Positions 3,677 to 28,273 of a stretch of 28,273 bases of DNA are shown piece after piece (positions within the stretch are counted from its first letter, which is position 1; the number at the start of each line of letters is the position of its first letter). Below the pieces are notes generated by a model, which was not told the DNA's origin, did no database searches, and was given only the letters and a program-made list of their open reading frames with translations. The stretch comes from a virus. Taxonomy: Duplodnaviria; Heunggongvirae; Uroviricota; Caudoviricetes. The stretch lies in IMG/VR virus record IMGVR_UViG_3300050821_010409, positions 94,160 through 122,432 of that record, one strand, 5' to 3'. Both the position numbers and the translations under genes were made by a program.

Positions 3677-3889
3677 CTAGTCCTCTTTTTCAGGCAGCGG
3701 TGATACCGCGTCCAGGCCGTGCAGGCCGATGTCCTCCAGCTGCCACGACCCTGATGGACCCAGGTTCTCGTCAATGCAGTCCCGCAGCACGGTGATGACC
3801 TCCGTGCCCTTTGTCCCGGCAGGGACGGACACCATGCCGCAGAACTCCACGAGCAGCCGGCTTCTGGTGGCCAGGGGCTTGCCGTTCAT
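3677..3889 (-). CDS. hypothetical protein
   Basis: 70 aa; start overlaps upstream stop. Confidence 0.7.
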   Translation of the reverse strand: MNGKPLATRSRLLVEFCGMVSVPAGTKGTEVITVLRDCIDENLGPSGSWQLEDIGLHGLDAVSPLPEKED

Positions 3890-5180: not shown

Positions 5181-6334
5181 GACGGTTCTTTCCTTTCAGT
5201 CTCTCCCAGTATTACAGCAAGCTCCGCCTTGATGGCGCGTGCCTGCGGGGAATCCCAGCATGCGGTGGCCTCCAGGAACTGGCGGGCGGCACTGGCTGCT
5301 CCCGGGTCCGTGATCCGGCTCACGAGCATCAGCTTCTCCGCGAACGGCGCGGCTCCTGCTGGCGGCGCAGGCTGCGCGCGGATGATGTCGCCGGCGATGA
5401 CGAACAACGACCGGGGTGATGACGCGGCTTCTTCCTCCTTTTCTTTTTCCGGCACGGGCACGGGCGTGATGCCTGGCTCGCGCAGCCGCAACCGCGCCGA
5501 CCTGCTGCCGGGCAGCACGGCGTCCTGGGTCAGGAGCACGGCGTGCACGCCCGCTCCGGTTCCGGTGATCGAGAACCTGACGGGTGCCGCTGCCGCACGG
5601 TTGGTTTTCCAGGACGTCATCCGCCGTTCGCTCTCGCTGGCGGCCCCGAGCACGTACACGATGCGCAGGGCATCGGTCAGTGACTTGTTGCCGGCGATCT
5701 CGCCAGATTTCACAGTGTGGTGACTGATGATCATCGCCACCCCGGTCTCCCGGGTTACCGCCTGCAGTCCGTCAATGACGGTCCTGGCGGCGCGCGCGGA
5801 GCTGAGCGTGCTGCTGCACATCGCCAGCAGCGGGTCCAGGATCACCAGTCCCGCGGGCGGCCCGGCAGCATTCACCTCCGTGATGGCCCGCTTCAGCTCC
5901 GGGATGTTGTCCGGCAGCAGGAACGATGAGCCGTCCGGCAGCAGGGTCAGGTCGTGCACCAGGGACAGGTCCGCGCCCGCGGCCGCCAGCCGGAAGGCCA
6001 GGTCTTCATTAGCGTCATCCTCTGGCGCGATAATGATCACCGACTGCGGCTCGCGGCCAGCGGCCTCACCCGGGAACGGCTGCCCGCGGGTGGTGATCCC
6101 GGTGATCGCTGCCAGCAGCAGGCCCTTGCCTGTTCCTCCTGGCGCCGCGATCATCACCGGCGTGCGGTAGGGGATGACTCCCGGCCACAGGTAGCGAGCC
6201 GGGAGCGCGGGGATCTCGCTGAACGGGACGGCGAGCTGCCCGTCATCCCAGTGGGGGCTGGCTGCCTCCGGTGCCGTGGCATCGCCGCTGATCACGGTGA
6301 ACGGCGGGAAGCCCGGCACGTCCGGGATGCTCAT
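5177..6334 (-). CDS. AAA_25/RepA-like P-loop ATPase with extra C-terminal domain
   Basis: YLWPGVIP..TPVMIAAPGGTGKG (Walker A), LVILDP (Walker B), ISHHTVK; start moved to ATG 6334, coupled to upstream stop. Confidence 0.8.
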   Translation of the reverse strand: MSIPDVPGFPPFTVISGDATAPEAASPHWDDGQLAVPFSEIPALPARYLWPGVIPYRTPVMIAAPGGTGKGLLLAAITGITTRGQPFPGEAAGREPQSVIIIAPEDDANEDLAFRLAAAGADLSLVHDLTLLPDGSSFLLPDNIPELKRAITEVNAAGPPAGLVILDPLLAMCSSTLSSARAARTVIDGLQAVTRETGVAMIISHHTVKSGEIAGNKSLTDALRIVYVLGAASESERRMTSWKTNRAAAAPVRFSITGTGAGVHAVLLTQDAVLPGSRSARLRLREPGITPVPVPEKEKEEEAASSPRSLFVIAGDIIRAQPAPPAGAAPFAEKLMLVSRITDPGAASAARQFLEATACWDSPQARAIKAELAVILGETERKEPS

Positions 6335-6600
6335 GACGGCCGTGCTTCCTGCTGCGCCTCCTGCAGGGCCAGGGCCAGCTCGGCCTTGACGGCCCGCGCT
6401 CTTCGTCCCTTCTTGTGCTGCCCCTTCCAGCCCGCGGCGTAGCGCAGGAAAGCCGTGACGGCAGCCCTGCTGGCCGGGTCCGCTGGCCAGTCCGCGCAGG
6501 TCGTGGCCAGCATGCGGTCCACGAACGGCACCGCGCGCGGGTCCGGGTAGGGCCACCACTGGATGATCTCGCTGGCGATCACGCGAAGCGGGCGCGTCAT
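6331..6600 (-). CDS. phage-type hypothetical protein
   Basis: RPL..IA.EI...W....AVP....M...FL..A.GW.G...R.VKAEL pattern, which I recall from small phage proteins. Confidence 0.75.
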   Translation of the reverse strand: MTRPLRVIASEIIQWWPYPDPRAVPFVDRMLATTCADWPADPASRAAVTAFLRYAAGWKGQHKKGRRARAVKAELALALQEAQQEARPS

Positions 6601-6977
6601 CGCCCGGCTGCCCTTTCCTCCATCCGGGTCAGCAGCGTGGCCAGGAAGTCCGGGCTGATGTCCCAGGTGCGGGTCATGCGGTGCAGCTCCGGGTCACCGA
6701 ACAGCTGGCCGGACATGACGTACGCCACGATCGTCATGCCTGCCTCGCCAGCCTCGTCAATGACCTTGTCGGCCAGTTCCCGGTCCCGGATCACGGCATC
6801 GATGTCCTGCTTCCGGTCACGCTCGGCGCGCAGGACCTTGATGATGTACTCCGGCGTGGAGATGCCCTCGTGCCTGGCGTACATGAAAGCCGACATCAGC
6901 TCTATGCTCGTGCCAGCGTTCCGTGCCCGGTCAGCGGCCTCCAGGTCCTCGTACGTGAACTTCTCATCGTCATGCAT
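6597..6977 (-). CDS. hypothetical protein
   Basis: 126 aa, RBS AAAGGAAG downstream of repeat A3. Confidence 0.8.
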   Translation of the reverse strand: MHDDEKFTYEDLEAADRARNAGTSIELMSAFMYARHEGISTPEYIIKVLRAERDRKQDIDAVIRDRELADKVIDEAGEAGMTIVAYVMSGQLFGDPELHRMTRTWDISPDFLATLLTRMEERAAGR

Positions 6978-9568: not shown

Positions 9569-10936
9569 GCTGCTGACCGCGCTCAGCATGGTGGCCAGGG
9601 CCGCGGTCCGGGGGCCGAGCCGGAACATCGCCACGCTGCTGGCGTCTTCTGCCGCGAGGCCCGCGGCGCGCTCGGCGTCGGTGAACCCGATGCCGGCGGC
9701 AGGCCCGATCCGGTAGGACTCGATGGGTGATGCTTGCGCTGCCAGCACCGGGCCATTACTGCTGCTGCGCCCGCGCCCGCGCCGGGGGCCATAGCTGAGC
9801 GAGTCGGTCAGCGCGGGCAGCATGTAGCCTGTGCACTGGATGGCCAGGTCGTAGGTGCGGTCATTGACCAGCACGCCACCGGGCACCGGCACCGGGTAGC
9901 CGGACTGCCCGGCCAGCCGCAGCCGGGTGCTCGGGCTGCTGGCGTTGCCTTCCAGGTACTGGGCCAGCCGCAGGTACCGGCCGCGCTTGCCCTCCCGGAA
10001 TTCGGAGCACGTCAGGCCGCTCAGGGCCGGCGCGTAGACGTCCACGCGCTGCACGCAGTCCAGTCCGATGGTGGAGGTGTGGCCAGGGGCGAGGCCCAGC
10101 AGGGACTCGGCAGCGCACAGCCCGCTGTTGCCGCCGCCGATGATCGCCACCTGAGCCAGCCCGCGCAGCGGGAACGGGGTGCCCATCCGGGCCATGAACT
10201 GCGGGAAGCTCAGTATCCGCTCGCCGTCGCCCTTGCTGGCCGGGTTGCCCAGGCCGCGCGCGTCCAGCACCCGGGCGCAGGAGAGGGTGCCTTCATTGGT
10301 GGCCAGCGTTATGGACTTGCCGCTGGGGCTGCTGACCCTGCCGCTGATGCTGGTGACGGTGACGCCCGGGGTCACGTCCGCGAATTGCGCCAGCAGCAGC
10401 CGGACCAGCCAGGCCACCAGGGCGTTGTCCGCGTACTCCTGTGAGGTGAGCATGGCCAGCGGCGGGAAGCCCGTCCCGGCCGGGAAGAAGTTCAGCCCCT
10501 TGTCCTGGTCAGGCAGCCCGGACGGGCCGGGCCGGTTGCGGGAGTTCAGCCAGAACACGGGCTGCATGCTCATCGCGAAGGCGCCCCCGACGCTCTCTGG
10601 CTCATTGCGCTCCAGGACGACGGGCTTGGGGAAGCCGGCCATGACGCGGCTGGCTGCGTAGACGGCCGCGTGGTAGCCGCCGCCGATGATGACCTCCCGG
10701 CCAGCCAGGTTCGTGAAGGCAGCTGCTGGCGGGCGCGACCAGTACTGCGTGAGCGCTGCCGTCATCAGCTGGCGCGCTTCGGGGACCATGGCGATCCCGG
10801 CCAGCTGCATTTCCGTCATGCTGGCGAAGTCGGCGGCGCGGGACGCGCACAGGGTGATCCCCTCCGACAGCCGCTTCTTGTCCAGGCACTGCTCGATCAC
10901 GTCCCGGATGACCGGGGCCAGTTCAGGCTCTGCCAT
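9566..10936 (-). CDS. FAD/NAD(P)-binding flavoprotein (monooxygenase/oxidoreductase-like)
   Basis: two dinucleotide-binding motifs VIIGGGYHA and VAIIGGGNSG, plus DARGLG and YDLAIQCTGY; start ATG 10936 after AGAAAGGA. Confidence 0.7.
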   Translation of the reverse strand: MAEPELAPVIRDVIEQCLDKKRLSEGITLCASRAADFASMTEMQLAGIAMVPEARQLMTAALTQYWSRPPAAAFTNLAGREVIIGGGYHAAVYAASRVMAGFPKPVVLERNEPESVGGAFAMSMQPVFWLNSRNRPGPSGLPDQDKGLNFFPAGTGFPPLAMLTSQEYADNALVAWLVRLLLAQFADVTPGVTVTSISGRVSSPSGKSITLATNEGTLSCARVLDARGLGNPASKGDGERILSFPQFMARMGTPFPLRGLAQVAIIGGGNSGLCAAESLLGLAPGHTSTIGLDCVQRVDVYAPALSGLTCSEFREGKRGRYLRLAQYLEGNASSPSTRLRLAGQSGYPVPVPGGVLVNDRTYDLAIQCTGYMLPALTDSLSYGPRRGRGRSSSNGPVLAAQASPIESYRIGPAAGIGFTDAERAAGLAAEDASSVAMFRLGPRTAALATMLSAVSS

Positions 10937-14061: not shown

Positions 14062-15348
14062 TTATGCGGCCTGCTCGCCAGCGGGCCACGCAGCATGCTG
14101 GCTGACGCTCAGCTCCAGCGGCCGGCCGTCGTAGCGCGCCGTGAGCTCTTCGGGCGCGATGAGGTAGCTGCCTCCGGGGTTCACGTACATCGGGTCGCAG
14201 CTGAACGCGATCTTGCGGTAGGTCCAGCCCGCCAGGTGGGCCATGACCCGGGGCGCCGCGTAGCCTTCCAGCTCGCCGTACCCGTTGAACACGACGAAGG
14301 CGCTTGGTGCCAGGGTCTCGAATGTCGGCACCAGCTTTCCTGGCGCGTTGTACTGCAGGGGCAGTACCCAGGCGCGCCCGCTGACGTCTCCGTAGGAGCC
14401 GAACGTCAGCAGCCCGAAGCCGCCGTTGGTCTTCAGTGCGCAGCGGCTGTCCCGGTAGCTCGTCCACCAGCAGGATCCCTCATGGTAAAAGTCCCCGGGC
14501 GGCCGGTTCAGGTCCCGCGTGACGATGATCGTGACGTCCACGGGGTTGCTGTGGTCGCGGGCGATGCTGCCGATGCCCGACAAGTCGGCGGGCGCGAGCT
14601 TGAGGCTGTATTTCTTGTAGGCGAGGCTGCTCAGCCGCTTGGTGAAGTTTCCGGTCCTGGCCTGCCACTGGTTACCCAGCTCGTCCAGGGACCAGGCTAG
14701 TTCGCAGAGGAGGGCGCTTTCCTGCGCGCGCGCCTTGGCCATCAGGTAAGCCTGGATCTCCTTCAGCCCTTCGGGTGAGATGGCGCCCGCCGCCAGCGTG
14801 ATCGTGGCCTGCACGTCATTCGCCAGCAGTGCGCAGCCGTTATTGCGGAGGGTGAACGCGGGTTGCGGTGAGGAGCAGCAGGAGCCATCGTCCTCGTCCT
14901 CGTCCTCGTCCTCGTGGTCATGGTTGGCTTGGTCATTGTCGTGGTAGTGCCCCTCGCAGGGCTCGCAGTAGCTGTAGTCAGCGGCAAGGCACTGATCACA
15001 GACGTCCTCGGCGTCCAGCGTCCGGGTGAAGTGACCGCGGCTGACCGGGTACCGGTCGTCACAGAGGGAGCACGCTCCCCAGGAATCCCGGCACGAGTCG
15101 CAGACGTGCACGCTGGCGTAGGTGCGCACGGAGGTGAGCGCGTGTTCCCAGGCGGGAATGCCGCAGCCGTCACAGAAATCGACGTCATCGATGGCGGTGG
15201 GCTCGCTGGTGATCGTCTCCAGGTACTGGCGGAACTGGGCATTGCGGCTGCCCAGGAACGGGTCGTGCGTGAACCCGGTCCACAGCCCTTCTAGGTCCAG
15301 GTCGCCTGCAGCGACCTTGGGGACGGGGTCTTGCGCTTCTTGCGTCAT
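14062..15348 (-). CDS. multi-CxxC protein with SCWW/GRAW domain (paralog 1 of 3)
   Basis: six CxxC pairs, acidic linker, then conserved domain GSCWW...SRCALKTNGGFG...SGRAWV...FNGYG; start ATG 15348. Confidence 0.85.
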   Translation of the reverse strand: MTQEAQDPVPKVAAGDLDLEGLWTGFTHDPFLGSRNAQFRQYLETITSEPTAIDDVDFCDGCGIPAWEHALTSVRTYASVHVCDSCRDSWGACSLCDDRYPVSRGHFTRTLDAEDVCDQCLAADYSYCEPCEGHYHDNDQANHDHEDEDEDEDDGSCCSSPQPAFTLRNNGCALLANDVQATITLAAGAISPEGLKEIQAYLMAKARAQESALLCELAWSLDELGNQWQARTGNFTKRLSSLAYKKYSLKLAPADLSGIGSIARDHSNPVDVTIIVTRDLNRPPGDFYHEGSCWWTSYRDSRCALKTNGGFGLLTFGSYGDVSGRAWVLPLQYNAPGKLVPTFETLAPSAFVVFNGYGELEGYAAPRVMAHLAGWTYRKIAFSCDPMYVNPGGSYLIAPEELTARYDGRPLELSVSQHAAWPAGEQAA

Positions 15349-20470: not shown

Positions 20471-20523
20471 GACAGCAAAGCGCTCCGTTCCCGGCAGGCG
20501 GGAGCGGAGCGCTAGGGCTGCTC
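20471..20523 (-). repeat. family B hairpin
   Basis: CAGC-AA-AGCGCTCCGTTCCC...GGGAGCGGAGCGCT-AGG-GCTG. Confidence 0.85.
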
Positions 20524-20538
20524 ATCAGGAGGCTAGCG

Positions 20539-23116: not shown

Positions 23117-23148
23117 GATCGTTTCTTCTTTCCCTTTGGGTGCTTGCC

Positions 23149-23214
23149 CTGACCGGGCAGTGAAGCGCTCCGTTCCCGTGGACGGGGAGCGGAGCGCTCG
23201 GACTGGCTGGTCAG
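23149..23214 (-). repeat. family B hairpin
   Basis: CTGACC.GGCAGT-GA-AGCGCTCCG...CGGAGCGCT-CGG-ACTG.CTGGTCAG. Confidence 0.9.
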
Positions 23215-23228
23215 GCGAGGGCGTGCGG

Positions 23229-24019: not shown

Positions 24020-24054
24020 GGCGTTGTGCCCCTTTTCTTAGCCCATCTGGTTTC

Positions 24055-24122
24055 GCCCGTGATCAGGCAATGAAGCGCTCCGCTTTCCTGCTCAGGGAGA
24101 GCGGAGCGCTCGGATTGCCGGG
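24055..24122 (-). repeat. family B hairpin, identical to 25046-25113
   Basis: 68-nt exact match by eye; GGCAAT-GA-AGCGCTCCGCT...AGCGGAGCGCT-CGG-ATTGCC. Confidence 0.95.
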
Positions 24123-24129
24123 CCCGGGA

Positions 24130-24585
24130 TTACCAGCTGGGCTCCAGGAGTGACGGGATTTCAAAGGTTCCCGTTTCCGCGATGGCGTCCAGCGCCGCCA
24201 GGACCTGGGCTTCGGTGCGTGCCCAGTTGAACAGCCAGCAGGCGCGTGAGTACGTGAGGTCCAGAGCGTGCTGGGCATGGTCCAGGACTGAGGTGAGCGT
24301 GCCGTCTGGCATCCTGATGCGGTCTGCCCCGGACAGGATAATGGCGTCATTGGGCAGCGTGAGGATGGCCGCCCAGCCGCCGATGCAGGCAGTGGACGAA
24401 GTGCTCCACTCATTGCGAGTCAGGCGTACCCGGATGTGCTCGGCAGGGACGTGGAGGAAAGCCGTGCCGGTCCAGCTTTCCTGGTTCAGCCAGCGCTCGT
24501 CCTCCCGTATCAGTGTGGCGATGAACCGCGCCAGCGTGCGCGGCGTGAAGGTGGCCGGGATCTCTCGTGGTGCCAGGATGTTCAT
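24130..24585 (-). CDS. hypothetical protein (distant paralog of 21776..22102)
   Basis: start ATG 24585 after AAGGAAAGGA; WLNQESW...TACIGGWA...ALDL....WLF. Confidence 0.8.
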   Translation of the reverse strand: MNILAPREIPATFTPRTLARFIATLIREDERWLNQESWTGTAFLHVPAEHIRVRLTRNEWSTSSTACIGGWAAILTLPNDAIILSGADRIRMPDGTLTSVLDHAQHALDLTYSRACWLFNWARTEAQVLAALDAIAETGTFEIPSLLEPSW

Positions 24586-24613
24586 GGGCAGTGATCCTTT
24601 CCTTGCGTGCATG

Positions 24614-24685
24614 CCCTGACTGGGCAATGAAGCGCTCCGCATCCCACGGCTAGGGAAGCGGAGCGCTCGGATTGCCGGGTCAGGG
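24614..24685 (-). repeat. family B hairpin
   Basis: CCCTGAC.GGGCAATGAAGCGCTCCGC...GCGGAGCGCTCGGATTGCCGGGTCAGGG; includes upstream stop. Confidence 0.9.
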
Positions 24686-25045: not shown

Positions 25046-25117
25046 GCCCGTGATCAGGCAATGAAGCGCTCCGCTTTCCTGCTCAGGGAGAGCGGAGCGC
25101 TCGGATTGCCGGGTCAG
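25046..25117 (-). repeat. family B hairpin, first 68 nt identical to 24055-24122
   Basis: exact repeat; includes upstream stop at 25114. Confidence 0.95.
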
Positions 25118-25411: not shown

Positions 25412-25660
25412 CTAGTGCACGGACAGGCCGCTGCTGGTGCAGGTGGCCGTGTCGCCATCAGGCAGCAGCACGGACTCGCCGGTGCTCAGGTCTACGTCCC
25501 AGGTGCCGACGTTCCGGTTATCGGTGGCGTACACCGGCTGCGTGACCTGGTAGCAGGCTGCAGGGGCAGAGGCGCGCACCAGCATGACCGTCACGATGAC
25601 GGCAGCCAGCACGCTGGCAATGGCGATCAGCATGGCTGCGTTCAGGGAACGGCGCGTCAT
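25412..25660 (-). CDS. small membrane or secreted protein
   Basis: 82 aa; long N-terminal hydrophobic helix; ATGA overlap. Confidence 0.75.
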   Translation of the reverse strand: MTRRSLNAAMLIAIASVLAAVIVTVMLVRASAPAACYQVTQPVYATDNRNVGTWDVDLSTGESVLLPDGDTATCTSSGLSVH

Positions 25661-25785
25661 CGCCGGCAGCCCTTGCGGGAGGCGCGCGCCACGCGGCGGG
25701 CGGCACGGCGGCGGCGCGCGCTGGCGGAGCTGAGCTTGGGCGCGCTGCTGTGGTTGGAGCGGCCCTGCGTGAAGGGCTCGGTCAT
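25657..25785 (-). CDS. Arg-rich small basic protein (42 aa)
   Basis: ARRRRAARRVARASRKGCRR; RBS GGAAAGGA. Confidence 0.6.
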   Translation of the reverse strand: MTEPFTQGRSNHSSAPKLSSASARRRRAARRVARASRKGCRR

Positions 25786-25829
25786 GGCCTTGTCCTTTCC
25801 CGTGAGCGGGAGCCTTTCTCCCGCTGCCG

Positions 25830-25893
25830 TGGCACGCGAGGGGATTGAACCCTCGTGCGGGCTGTAGCCTGCAAGCCTTGCCTGGCTCGTGCC
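25830..25893 (-). ncRNA. tRNA-like element 1 (64 nt, reduced arms)
   Basis: GGCACG...CGAGGG-TTCAATC-CCCTCG-CGTGCC-A: T-loop consensus, 6-bp T stem, 6-bp acceptor stem, D-like hairpin AGCC-AGGCAA-GGCT. Confidence 0.6.
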
Positions 25894-26000
25894 GTTTCCC
25901 TGCATATGCGCGGTCCCTTTGCTACTCTGTCCCGCTTTCCGGTCTTCTCCGCTGCCAGGGCGGACTCTGCCGAGCTTTCATTTTCGCGGGCGTCCGTGCG

Positions 26001-26047
26001 TGGCACCCAGCGGAGTCGAACCGCTGCGCGTGCTTTCCCCCGGTGCC
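26001..26047 (-). ncRNA. tRNA-like element 2 (47 nt minihelix)
   Basis: GGCACC-15 nt-CAGCGG-TTCGACT-CCGCTG-GGTGCC-A. Confidence 0.6.
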
Positions 26048-26054
26048 GTTACTG

Positions 26055-26270
26055 CTAGCTTTTCCTGATCCTGATCGTCATGTGCGACCGGGAGAATTCA
26101 TCACTCGGCGCGGCGTAGACGGTCCCGGATTCCTGTGGCCGGTTGCCCTTGACTGCTGATTCCGGGAGCCAGCAGTGCTCTTGTGGCTTAGTGCGGAACA
26201 CGCAGCCGTCTCGCCATTCCGTGACCAGGAATGGCTGCACGTACACCTCGTACTCGCGTTCTGGCATCAC
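26055..26270 (-). CDS. hypothetical protein
   Basis: 71 aa; WLPES.V motif; start overlaps upstream stop. Confidence 0.65.
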   Translation of the reverse strand: MMPEREYEVYVQPFLVTEWRDGCVFRTKPQEHCWLPESAVKGNRPQESGTVYAAPSDEFSRSHMTIRIRKS

Positions 26271-26509
26271 CGCGTGACTGTCCTGATCTCGGTGGCGTGC
26301 AGGGCGAAGTCGCGCAGCAGGGCACCGTAATCCCAGTAGCAGGACTGGCCGATGGGCAGGTTTTCGCCATCGAATGCTTCGAATGCCATGAAGCGTGCTT
26401 TCTTGAAACAGTAATCACAGCTATGACGCCAGCGGCGCAGGGGATTGGGCTTGGCGTGCTTGCTGCGCTTGATGACCCGTTTCCTGAGCAGGATGATCAG
26501 CAACTTCAT
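26267..26509 (-). CDS. basic CxxC protein (80 aa)
   Basis: start ATG 26509 overlapping upstream stop; SCDYCF...CYWD. Confidence 0.65.
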   Translation of the reverse strand: MKLLIILLRKRVIKRSKHAKPNPLRRWRHSCDYCFKKARFMAFEAFDGENLPIGQSCYWDYGALLRDFALHATEIRTVTR

Positions 26510-26892
26510 GACGTGGCCTGCCCTTCGCGCCGTTCCAGTTCCTGGAATTCCGCGATGGCTTGCGCCCACGCCTGCGGGAACGTGACCTTGATGTAGCCAG
26601 TCAGCCACGCGAGCGCGTGCAGTTCGCTGACCGTGACGTCAGGGCAGCTGGCGATGTGCGGCCTGCTGTGGCACTCGTACAGTCCTGAGAGCGCGTCGTG
26701 CATTCCCCTGCTGAACGCTTCAGGTCCTGGCTGCGCTTGCGCGCCTGCGTACCGGTCAGCGATGGCGTCAAGGTGGCGCCAGTTACCCTGGCTGATGATG
26801 CACTCGACGGTGCGGGCTTTCTCGTCATCGGTGCCCGTCCAGGCATAGCACAGCAGCCAGCGCCGGACGACATCTTCTGAGAGCGTGCTCAT
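26506..26892 (-). CDS. hypothetical protein
   Basis: 128 aa, RBS AGAAAGGAG. Confidence 0.8.
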   Translation of the reverse strand: MSTLSEDVVRRWLLCYAWTGTDDEKARTVECIISQGNWRHLDAIADRYAGAQAQPGPEAFSRGMHDALSGLYECHSRPHIASCPDVTVSELHALAWLTGYIKVTFPQAWAQAIAEFQELERREGQATS

Positions 26893-26938
26893 GGTGTTTT
26901 CTCCTTTCTCGTGTTCCTTGCGTGCCTTGTTTCCTGCG

Positions 26939-27005
26939 GCGTAAGGTCATGGCCAGCGATTTCCCTGTGCTGTCCTTGGGAGATCACTGGCCATGAGCCG
27001 GCGCT
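26939..27005 (-). repeat. family C hairpin repeat, copy 3
   Basis: GCGTAAG-G-TCATGGCCAG/CTGGCCATGA (10-bp stem)-GCCGGCGCT. Confidence 0.75.
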
Positions 27006-27030
27006 GCTGGTCATCGGTGAAGCGGCAGCC

Positions 27031-27558
27031 TCACCACGACTCCTCGGCAACGATTGTCCACGTGAACAGGTAGCGCGGGTCATAGTGCCTGCTGCATTCC
27101 GCGCAGCTCATGGTCTTGGCTGCTCGCGTTAGCCGGTGGCGTCGCAGGACGTGGCCGTTAGGGCAGGTGCCCCGGTACGTGCCCGCGATGGCGAGCTCAT
27201 CATCAAAGCACCGCTCCGGGTTCGCGCCGATCAGCACGCACATGTGCCGCCATTCCTGGTCATGGCCGCCGGTGGTGAGCGCGTGCGCGATCTCGTGCAG
27301 GATGACGTCCTTGATCATGGCGTAGTTTCCGGCACGCTGCCATTTCGTCATGATTGGCGCGCTCAGTCCGATCACCGGGATTTCCCGGCGGCACACGCCG
27401 GCCCGCTGCTTGCTCTCGTCAAACGCCAGCGTCCAGTCGCCGATGTCGTGCACGATCATGAGTGGCTCTGCCATCTCGCGGACGCCGCGTGGTTCTGGCG
27501 TCGTCCCGGTGACGAGGGTCGCTCCCATGCTCGCCAGGAAGTCCGGCATTGCCGCCAT
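27031..27558 (-). CDS. SprT-like zinc metalloprotease
   Basis: FD....RAG.C, VILHEIAHAL (HExxH), GHDQEW, C-terminal CPNGH...CAEC, as expected for the SprT family. Confidence 0.85.
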   Translation of the reverse strand: MAAMPDFLASMGATLVTGTTPEPRGVREMAEPLMIVHDIGDWTLAFDESKQRAGVCRREIPVIGLSAPIMTKWQRAGNYAMIKDVILHEIAHALTTGGHDQEWRHMCVLIGANPERCFDDELAIAGTYRGTCPNGHVLRRHRLTRAAKTMSCAECSRHYDPRYLFTWTIVAEESW

Positions 27559-27599
27559 CGTGATTCACCTCATTTCCTTGGTTCCTGCGTTGCCAGTAC

Positions 27600-27660
27600 C
27601 GGGCTGAGTGCCCGTGGCCGCACGCGGGAGCGTTTTCCCGCGCGCGACCATGGATGCTCA
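27600..27660 (-). repeat. family A repeat, copy 10 (divergent, with compensatory changes)
   Basis: CGGGCTGAGTGCCCG-TGGCCGCACGCGGGA...TCCCGCGCGCGACCA-TGGATGCTCA; includes upstream stop. Confidence 0.8.
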
Positions 27661-27807
27661 GATGTACTCGGCAACCCAGCCGTCAGGCAGGGCCGCTTCA
27701 AGCTCGTCAAGCTGCGCGTCTGTCAGCAGGATTGCCTCGCCCTGCTGTGTCCCGTTATCGTCCAGGACCTTGACCTGGTAGGTGGTCTCGCCCGTTTCGG
27801 CGTTCAT
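27658..27807 (-). CDS. small acidic protein (49 aa, not in ORF track)
   Basis: MNAETGETTYQVKVLDD...WVAEYI; RBS AGAAAGGAAAA. Confidence 0.7.
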   Translation of the reverse strand: MNAETGETTYQVKVLDDNGTQQGEAILLTDAQLDELEAALPDGWVAEYI

Positions 27808-27836
27808 GACAGTTTTCCTTTCTCGTCACCGGTGGC

Positions 27837-27986
27837 TTACGACAACGGCCTCAGGTCACTGCTGAAGTAGTTGCCGGTACTGCCGTCTGACCATTCCACG
27901 GCGTAGAGCCCGTTGGGGTGCTGGCGGCGGATGACGCCATAGGCCCATGGGGATTTCCGGTGCGTGACGATCTGCGCGATGCTCAT
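27837..27986 (-). CDS. small hypothetical protein (49 aa, not in ORF track)
   Basis: MSIAQIVTHRKSPWAYGVI...YAVEWSDG; RBS AGAAAGGAAAGGA. Confidence 0.7.
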   Translation of the reverse strand: MSIAQIVTHRKSPWAYGVIRRQHPNGLYAVEWSDGSTGNYFSSDLRPLS

Positions 27987-28132
27987 GACAGTCCTTTCCT
28001 TTCTTGGATTCCTGTTGAATCCTCGCAGCCACGGACAGGAAGAATCGCCTGCCTGTGACTGCCAGCATTCAAGCTGGACGGCTTTCTCTTTTCAGCCGTT
28101 CGGGTCAAGTCCGGAGTGGTTACCGTTTGCCC

Positions 28133-28180
28133 GGTGCTGACGTCGGCTATGATGGCAGCTCGTTCATCTACGTCAGCACC
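28133..28180. repeat. intergenic inverted repeat
   Basis: GGTGCTGACGT (28133-28143) / ACGTCAGCACC (28170-28180). Confidence 0.6.
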
Positions 28181-28234
28181 CTTGTGCTCATTTCTCGTGG
28201 CTTTCCGGAGTCATTTTCCGGTAGTTCCCTCGCG

Positions 28235-28260
28235 TGGCACCGGGCGGAATTGAACCGCCC
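28235..28260 (-). ncRNA. tRNA-like element 3, 3' half only (truncated by window end)
   Basis: GGGCGG-TTCAATT-CCGCCC-GGTGCC-A, same ending as elements 1 and 2; 5' part replaced by poly-C run. Confidence 0.5.
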
Positions 28261-28273
28261 CCCCCCCCCCCCC

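Follow-up and report, generated by a model that had tools for sequence, protein, structure and literature searches.

Plant mitochondrial t-elements, found through the T-arm motif GGTTCRANYCC, are sites at which RNase P and RNase Z define mRNA ends, and the excised t-elements are CCA-tailed and not aminoacylated (PMC1920247; bioRxiv 10.1101/2024.09.09.612099). The same motif marks three elements, el1, el2 and el3 (Table 1), in the final 28,273 nucleotides (nt) of a 122,432-bp IMG/VR viral contig, the stretch analysed here and termed the window, which belongs to an uncultured, high-GC soil phage (contig CheckV completeness 81%, G+C ~65%). Similarly to the t-elements (Hanic-Joyce 1990; Forner et al. 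2007, PMC1920247), the phage elements are non-canonical tRNA-like sequences with a GGTTCRANYCC T arm and an acceptor stem; t-elements adjoin mRNA ends with no encoded CCA, and the phage elements likewise lie at gene borders without an encoded CCA. In contrast, t-elements are organellar, mostly of full cloverleaf size and visibly homologous to particular tRNA genes, whereas the phage elements measure 43–47 nt at their shortest, carry an 11–32-nt connector in place of the D and anticodon arms and have no detectable parent tRNA. The elements el1, el2 and el3 are non-coding, transcript-sense RNAs that display the coaxial acceptor/T-arm helix and T-loop elbow of tRNA and no anticodon. Judged on their sequences, there is roughly an even chance that they would act as RNase P/RNase Z processing signals cutting a polycistronic early phage message, as t-elements do in plant mitochondria.

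Other described tRNA-like modules differ from the phage elements in several respects. The mascRNA and menRNA modules of MALAT1 and NEAT1 (RF01684) are embedded in longer transcripts, and their excision by RNase P and RNase Z makes the flanking mature end. These modules belong to eukaryotic nuclear long non-coding RNAs (lncRNAs) and keep an anticodon-like arm, and there is no Rfam match here. The P4 CI RNA, the P1/P7 C4 RNA and the T4 species 1 and 2 RNAs are phage non-tRNA transcripts matured by host RNase P. Each is a single regulatory or stable RNA and, to our knowledge, none has the T-loop/12-bp minihelix design, whereas the elements of the window form a repeated intergenic family. Transfer-messenger RNA (tmRNA) and bacterial Y RNA (YrlA) share with the elements an acceptor stem, a T arm, a D-loop analogue and the lack of an anticodon, but their tRNA-like domains sit within large RNAs that also contain a reading frame for the tag or a stem that binds Ro, and neither the ARAGORN tmRNA search nor Rfam reveals a tmRNA here. 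The literature searches turned up no account of minihelices of this tRNA-like, intergenic kind in phage operons, and Rfam contains no such family.

The long open reading frames (ORFs) of the window lie mostly on the minus strand, and the three elements are therefore read on that strand, in transcript sense. In this orientation el1 consists of GGCACG, a 32-nt connector, CGAGGG TTCAATC CCCTCG, CGTGCC, A and CG, while el2 consists of GGCACC, the 15-nt connector GGGGGAAAGCACGCG, CAGCGG TTCGACT CCGCTG, GGTGCC, A and CG. The 6+6-bp acceptor/T stack, the TTCRAYY loop, the unpaired A and the CG trailer described in an earlier sequence-only reading of this DNA are all present in both elements, with perfect pairing, and both are preceded by AAC. 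The connector of el1 includes the D-like hairpin noted by that reading, AGCC[AGGCAA]GGCU, with GG in its loop. The same reading held that el1 has no proper anticodon arm, which is correct as to the loop, a 4-nt UACA instead of one of 7 nt, but not as to the arm itself, since an anticodon-arm-like hairpin of 3+3 bp with an A.C mismatch, UGCAGGC[UACA]GCCCGCA, does exist. The cloverleaf-like fold of el1 is both the minimum free energy structure and the centroid in RNAfold (-32.7 kcal/mol, z = -3.6, equalled by none of 200 shuffles).

The fold occurs far more often than expected by chance. On the minus strand of the window GTGCCACG and GGTTCRAHYCC each occur exactly three times, at el1, el2 and el3. 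In a structural scan a hit had to combine a TTCRANN loop with a perfect 12-bp stack unbroken along the 3' strand, its 5' partner lying at most 70 nt away; the 122-kb contig contains 4 such elements, whereas 50 shuffles gave 0.14 on average and never more than 2. With one mismatch allowed the scan is dominated by noise (47 against ~28 in shuffles), its sole addition being the third of the longer modules of Table 1 (contig 14299-14372). In an alignment of 13 sequences the 12 pairs are 96% paired, compared with 75% in column shuffles and 39–53% in slid registers, and seven pairs display changes on both sides; the figure of 96% is inflated, as the sequences were chosen by pairing-based scans. T54 and A58 were imposed by the scans, while C56 was free to be C or U and the pairs G52-C62 and G53-C61 were free altogether; C56 and both pairs are invariant in the 13 sequences. 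In every copy the helix ends at 12 positions and is followed by an unpaired purine. The 6/6 division of the stack put forward earlier thus applies to el1 and el2, but not to the family, in which 5/7, 6/6 and 7/5 splits all occur and the constant is the 12-position stack.

These are tRNA-like acceptor/T-arm modules and not ordinary tRNAs, as the sequence-only reading had anticipated. ARAGORN reports 0 tRNA genes in the window, including in -mt mode at the default threshold, while at lowered thresholds (-ps80, -ps60, -mt) it returns hundreds to thousands of calls and is uninformative. Rfam yields nothing at gathering score and, over 2.5 kb, no match related to tRNA at E < 10, and the best related match, obtained in a 246-nt search, is tRNA-Sec with 13.3 bits (E = 5.6, gathering 47). 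Neither a canonical 7-bp acceptor with a 5-bp T stem, el1 and el2 being 6+6, nor a canonical cloverleaf with a 7-nt anticodon loop is found, the central loop of el1 having 4 nt and el2 having no central arm. The features retained are those of t-elements, namely the GGTTCRANYCC T arm, the paired acceptor stem and the placement at cistron borders in transcript sense. A plus-strand Rfam match to RF04354 (Plastid-ycf2), at 18 bits far below threshold, was rejected as arising from antisense look-alikes of the T arm. The only ARAGORN call in the whole contig, a 'tRNA-Ile(gat)' at 10284-10356, lacks a T-loop motif, shows an odd anticodon loop and is unseen by Rfam; it is probably a false positive, and the contig may therefore encode no canonical tRNA.

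The resemblance to tRNAs, together with a real tRNA-Met nearby in one relative, would also be expected of functionless sequences, either tRNA pseudogenes in decay or pieces of a host tRNA gene of the attP type. This origin is highly improbable, as the acceptor stem retains its two strands in perfect pairing, compensatory changes maintain the pairing from phage to phage, and the genome pattern scans show no match to the 3' half of a host tRNA. The pattern of T loop and GGTGCC-A-CG, with the CG trailer required, occurs in 16 of 185,579 species genomes, 11 of the 16 matches being tRNA-Met(CAU) of Elusimicrobia or Myxococcales and none an actinobacterial tRNA. Without the trailer, the T arm with NGTGCC-A gives 4 matches against 2 in the reversed control among 401 sampled Actinomycetota genomes (drawn from the phylum of L061, a Solirubrobacteraceae metagenome-assembled genome, that phylum being taken to be Actinomycetota). 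Only tRNA-Met(CAU) of Elusimicrobia and Myxococcales resembles the acceptor GGCACC with A73, and no tRNA emerged as the parent of the elements.

Structural conservation is seen most directly in L019, a 109.7-kb metagenomic contig of a related phage that was reached through the SprT-like protein adjoining the elements; SprT is 54% identical between the two phages and a neighbouring 128-aa protein 70%. Orthologs of all three elements lie at the same gene junctions of L019, at 6566-6629 for el1 (64 nt), at 6409-6455 for el2 (47 nt, same architecture) and at 3687-3740 for el3, which is there complete, with 54 nt and a 6/6 split, and precedes the same leader. The block formed by el2, the spacer and el1 is 89% identical, compared with 66–80% for the flanking coding DNA. 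Relative to el1, its L019 ortholog has G-C in place of A-U at T-stem pair 3 and G-U in place of G-C at pair 2, while the D-like and central stems are unchanged, the differences falling in their loops and at the A.C mismatch. The fold is thus conserved in this relative with compensatory changes, and this comparison, aligned by sequence alone, is cleaner evidence for conservation of the predicted structure than the pairing in the 13 sequences. The AAC flank is kept in L019 for el1 but not for el2. Further copies, which the sequence-only reading proposed to count, number two in L019, both upstream, at 2152-2194 (5/7 split) and 2658-2711 (6/6). All eight copies of the two phages share the GGCAC(C/G) acceptor and the CG trailer, while T stems and connectors differ, and the discriminator is A in seven of the eight and G in the L019 ortholog of el2.

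Analogous elements are present in three more distant SprT-linked operons. The copy in L053 (1049-1117) resembles a cloverleaf, its central loop being of 8 nt and its acceptor CGCAC, that in L054 (2460-2504) displays a 7/5 split and the acceptor GGCCGCC, and that in L056 (4253-4295) has the acceptor GGUGG. In L054 a genuine tRNA-Met occupies a neighbouring junction of the same operon. The covariance model R1 recovers copies in L019, L053, L054 and L056, and no element was found in five further relatives (L077-L081). Close relatives were found neither by blastn in the phage GenBank collection nor in IMG/VR by patterns of SprT-like peptides or of the conserved spacer. Scans of IMG/VR and metagenomes for GGCAC...GTGCC-R-CG return mostly unrelated short tRNA-like sequences together with a ~90-nt soil family, and no relatives of this phage. 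The ~90-nt tRNA-like soil RNA (L022, L024, L029, L036, L037, L047-L049) reads GGCACA...GGCACG UGGGUU.GCCCCUCGCGCAC CCUGGG UCCGACU CCCAGG UGUGCC A CG; its stack is split 6/6, and its 5' acceptor strand is present in two alternative versions.

The placement of the elements in relation to genes is strict. el1, el2 and el3 occupy the first gene junctions of a long leftward operon, and all 10 complete copies from the window, L019, L053, L054 and L056 are intergenic and on the gene strand, some of them beginning no more than ~10 nt from a stop codon or immediately behind a strong hairpin. Four of the 10 end 41–44 nt before an ATG; three L019 copies end 41–42 nt before start codons. Downstream of the hairpin that follows el1, a ribosome-binding site (RBS), GGAAAGGA, is located at 25793-25800.

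Two of the L019 copies precede nearly identical 42-nt leaders placed before different genes, as would be expected if the elements served mainly as short regions of homology at which related phages shuffle gene cassettes. A soil contig (run X3, 359 nt) that matches the window exactly as far as 25888-25890 before diverging in the 5' acceptor strand of el1 would fit the same explanation, but at ~3x depth it could be chimeric, and recombination leaves both the tRNA-specific fold and its compensatory maintenance unexplained; we regard it as very unlikely. The X3 contig matches the window from 25600 and continues beyond the breakpoint into unrelated sequence; the breakpoint, at el1 positions 4–6, would remove the 5' acceptor strand of el1 and may reflect a strain variant or a chimeric contig.

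A long plain hairpin lies directly 5' of the element in both L019 and L053, and at five or more other junctions of the operon of the window a ~70-nt hairpin repeat without tRNA likeness is found. Both observations would suit compact, nuclease-resistant folds that stay uncut and protect mRNA segments or uncouple the translation of cistrons, their tRNA likeness being incidental ancestry. For such protection, however, a simple hairpin would suffice, whereas diverged copies keep the T-loop signature (C56, G53-C61), the 12-position stack and the unpaired discriminator as well as a D-like connector containing GG, which makes this explanation decidedly unlikely.

The sharing of the acceptor GGCAC(C/G), discriminator and CG trailer by eight copies that differ in T stems and connectors, and the lack of an anticodon, could instead mean that the released, CCA-tailed minihelices are themselves the product, acting as stable acceptor-end mimics that titrate or distract a host factor (for example a defence toxin modifying or cutting the 3' ends of tRNAs, an enzyme that uses aminoacyl-tRNA, or RNase P). 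Acceptors differ in the distant relatives, however, so that the common GGCAC is explained by recent duplication in one lineage; no tRNA with such an acceptor rises above the control level in the 401 Actinomycetota genomes, and strict gene-junction placement at a fixed distance from the start codon is not needed by a decoy, which has no specific support. A role of this kind is unlikely. It is a doubtful proposal, too, that the phage, besides having its messages cut by tRNA-processing enzymes, would make a pool of CCA-tailed minihelices of fixed identity, GGCAC(C/G) with A73, as decoys or sponges for a host factor recognising tRNA 3' ends, for example a nucleotidyltransferase-type or acceptor-cleaving abortive-infection toxin; if true, such a pool would be an RNA-based counter-defence.

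An 82-aa ORF (25657-25905) that starts at ATG 25905 is called through el1, is open in the window and is also called on L018, which is the same phage assembled from another Joint Genome Institute (JGI) sample. The chance that el1 is part of this coding sequence is close to nil, as indels of +3 and -2 in L019 shift the upstream ATG out of frame with the conserved 41/42-aa protein, the gene call there starts after the element, and the differences inside el1 track RNA structure and not codon position.

The 12-position acceptor/T helix, the T-loop core and the unpaired discriminator are features read by RNase P, RNase Z and the CCA-adding enzyme. The phage elements keep this helix, the T-loop core, a GG-bearing connector capable of forming the elbow and the unpaired discriminator, while the anticodon arm, required for translation, is absent. 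Together with the sense placement at cistron borders, the retention of these tRNA-processing features makes a processing signal the best supported of the explanations. In the mechanism that we infer, the polycistronic transcript would fold locally into tRNA top-halves, host RNase P would cut at the 5' edge of the acceptor stem, and the host 3' tRNA-processing enzyme (RNase Z or an equivalent) would cut after the unpaired A. These cuts would part the upstream cistron from the downstream one and leave a defined leader, either of 41–44 nt with an RBS or of ~245 nt and structured, while the excised 47–64-nt minihelix may be CCA-tailed and would probably be a by-product. The contig has no match to the Pfam families PolyA_pol (CCA-adding), Lactamase_B_2 (RNase Z fold) and RtcB, so any processing would use host enzymes, and it has none to the Pfam Nop domain. 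Among RNA data sets, no run was listed as containing the el1-el2 region, and the single metatranscriptome, X5, gives two low-depth contigs, covering 25600-25669 and 26125-26522, outside the elements.

Several observations weigh against processing. The isolated el2 47-mer slightly prefers an alternative pairing over the T arm in RNAfold (z = -1.8), although its L019 ortholog does fold with the T arm, and position 55 of the T loop is C in two relatives (TCCGATT), which is unusual for real tRNAs. Bacterial RNase P prefers U at -1, and the nucleotide found there is C, A or G; no CCA is encoded. The conservation evidence comes from one diverged relative, L019, and from more distant analogues. Moreover, conservation of the el2-el1 spacer and of the leader that follows el3 equals or exceeds that of the elements, and the functional unit may therefore be a larger RNA of which the tRNA-like part is one module.

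Table 1. Location of the tRNA-like elements and associated features. Coordinates refer to the window unless given as contig positions.
Feature	Position	Strand	Description
el1, cloverleaf-like element	25830..25893	-	64 nt; structural scan, RNAfold, ortholog alignment
el2, minihelix	26001..26047	-	47 nt; structural scan; model R1 60.1 bits
el3, partial tRNA-like element	28235..28260	-	model R1 37.1 bits, E = 1.5e-4, 5'-truncated
Hairpin GCGGGAG-AAAGG-CUCCCGC directly after el1	25806..25824	-	sequence; stem GCGGGA/UCCCGC kept in L019, loop differs
Spacer between el2 and el1, 107 nt	25894..26000	-	conserved; within block 89% identical to L019
Upstream 70-aa gene	26055..26267	-	TAG stop 26057-26055, 7 nt before el2; no Pfam match
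Downstream 42-aa arginine-rich gene	25657..25785	-	ATG 44 nt after el1 discriminator; 41-aa protein in L019
Structured leader, ~245 nt, between el3 and first small gene (ATG 27986)	27990..28232	-	consensus fold with L019:3741-3985
Terminal poly-C run	28261..28273	.	L018 reads GGGGACGGGGGGCGT instead of poly-G
Three longer tRNA-like modules	contig 14299-14372, 14649-14734, 14841-14924	-	74-86 nt, 6/6 stack, A-CG ending

The third element is interrupted by the end of the contig, where its 5' half is missing. It comprises the T arm GGCGG TTCAATT CCGCC, the acceptor 3' strand (C)GGTGCC, the discriminator A at 28235 and the CG trailer. L018 also stops inside el3, reading GGGGACGGGGGGCGT-GGCGG-TTCAATT-CCGCC-CGGTGCC-A-CG, with GGGGACGGGGGGCGU before GGCGG in RNA letters. 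The element itself is therefore real, with T arm, GGTGCC, A and CG in place, but of the 6-bp stem GGGCGG/CCGCCC formerly assigned to it L018 supports 5 bp only. The ~13 C that close the window lie outside el3 and are an artefact of assembly or sequencing, or a G-run where assemblies break; they are not real sequence, since L018 differs there and the Logan contig of the probable source run ends ~4 nt past 28259. Recovery of the true sequence beyond 28260, as once envisaged, did not succeed, no contig in four runs, nor L018, extending past ~28263. The IMG/VR, the other JGI and the Logan assemblies all break inside el3 at the G-rich run, and this shared break may mark the physical end of the genome or a dropout in sequencing.

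The sequences that flank the elements are themselves structured. The ~245-nt leader after el3 displays, in relation to L019, 8 pairs that changed on both sides and are still paired; one of its hairpins has 5 compensatory pairs, and its core is near-identical in the two phages (GGGUGCUGACGUAGAUGAACGAGCU...ACGUCAGCACC GGGCAA.CGGUAACCA...); it could be an independent non-coding RNA or a regulatory 5' untranslated region. Within the el2-el1 spacer a hairpin at 25939-25973 shows one compensatory pair relative to L019 (U-A to C-G). It is overlapped by a 19-codon ATG..TAG frame on the minus strand (25922-25981, MKARQSPPWQRRRPESGTE), whose length and frame are kept in L019 with 3 synonymous and 3 non-synonymous differences and which has no obvious Shine-Dalgarno sequence. 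The 42-aa protein encoded downstream of el1 has an arginine-rich tail (ARRRRAARRVARASRKGCRR) and no Pfam match, and is possibly an RNA-binding peptide. Pfam and PHROGs assign no function to the genes neighbouring the elements, except for the SprT-like metalloprotease.

Other junctions of the same operon carry a different repeat of ~70 nt. Copies lie at no fewer than five places, that is at least at about 25046-25117, 24581-24685, 24047-24128, 23147-23215 and 20479-20529, and all of them match a single place in L019, 8427-8533. Thus, most junctions of the operon carry a structured repeat, the tRNA-like ones being found at the first three only.

Elsewhere in the contig the three longer modules, found in L017 at 6300-6373, 6650-6735 and 6842-6925, share the scaffold GGGCAG...CAGGAG UUCGAYY CUCCUG CUGYCC A CG and have a long central arm capped by an AT-rich loop of variable sequence. 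A second conserved module (GGGCAGGCCAGGAAUUG...GGGGAGCGG-variable hairpin) lies in front of each of them, and the tRNA-like modules are tandemly repeated in a non-coding array rich in AGCCAGCCA motifs, the scaffold remaining fixed while the AT-rich loops vary. The occurrence of the longer modules in non-coding arrays suggests that mRNAs and small RNAs share a single processing strategy.

If host RNase P and RNase Z cut at these elements, this phage and its relatives would organise early gene expression by 'tRNA punctuation', an arrangement known from mitochondria and a few eukaryotic lncRNAs and, in the literature searched, undescribed for phage mRNAs. Such processing would imply that the enzymes measuring the 12-bp acceptor/T helix tolerate any strand-exit position (5/7, 6/6 or 7/5), and, for multiplexed RNA processing in high-GC bacteria, the elements would offer a natural part of compact size. 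It would also explain a class of unannotated intergenic sequences, some of which, like the 82-aa call over el1, are translated by gene finders.

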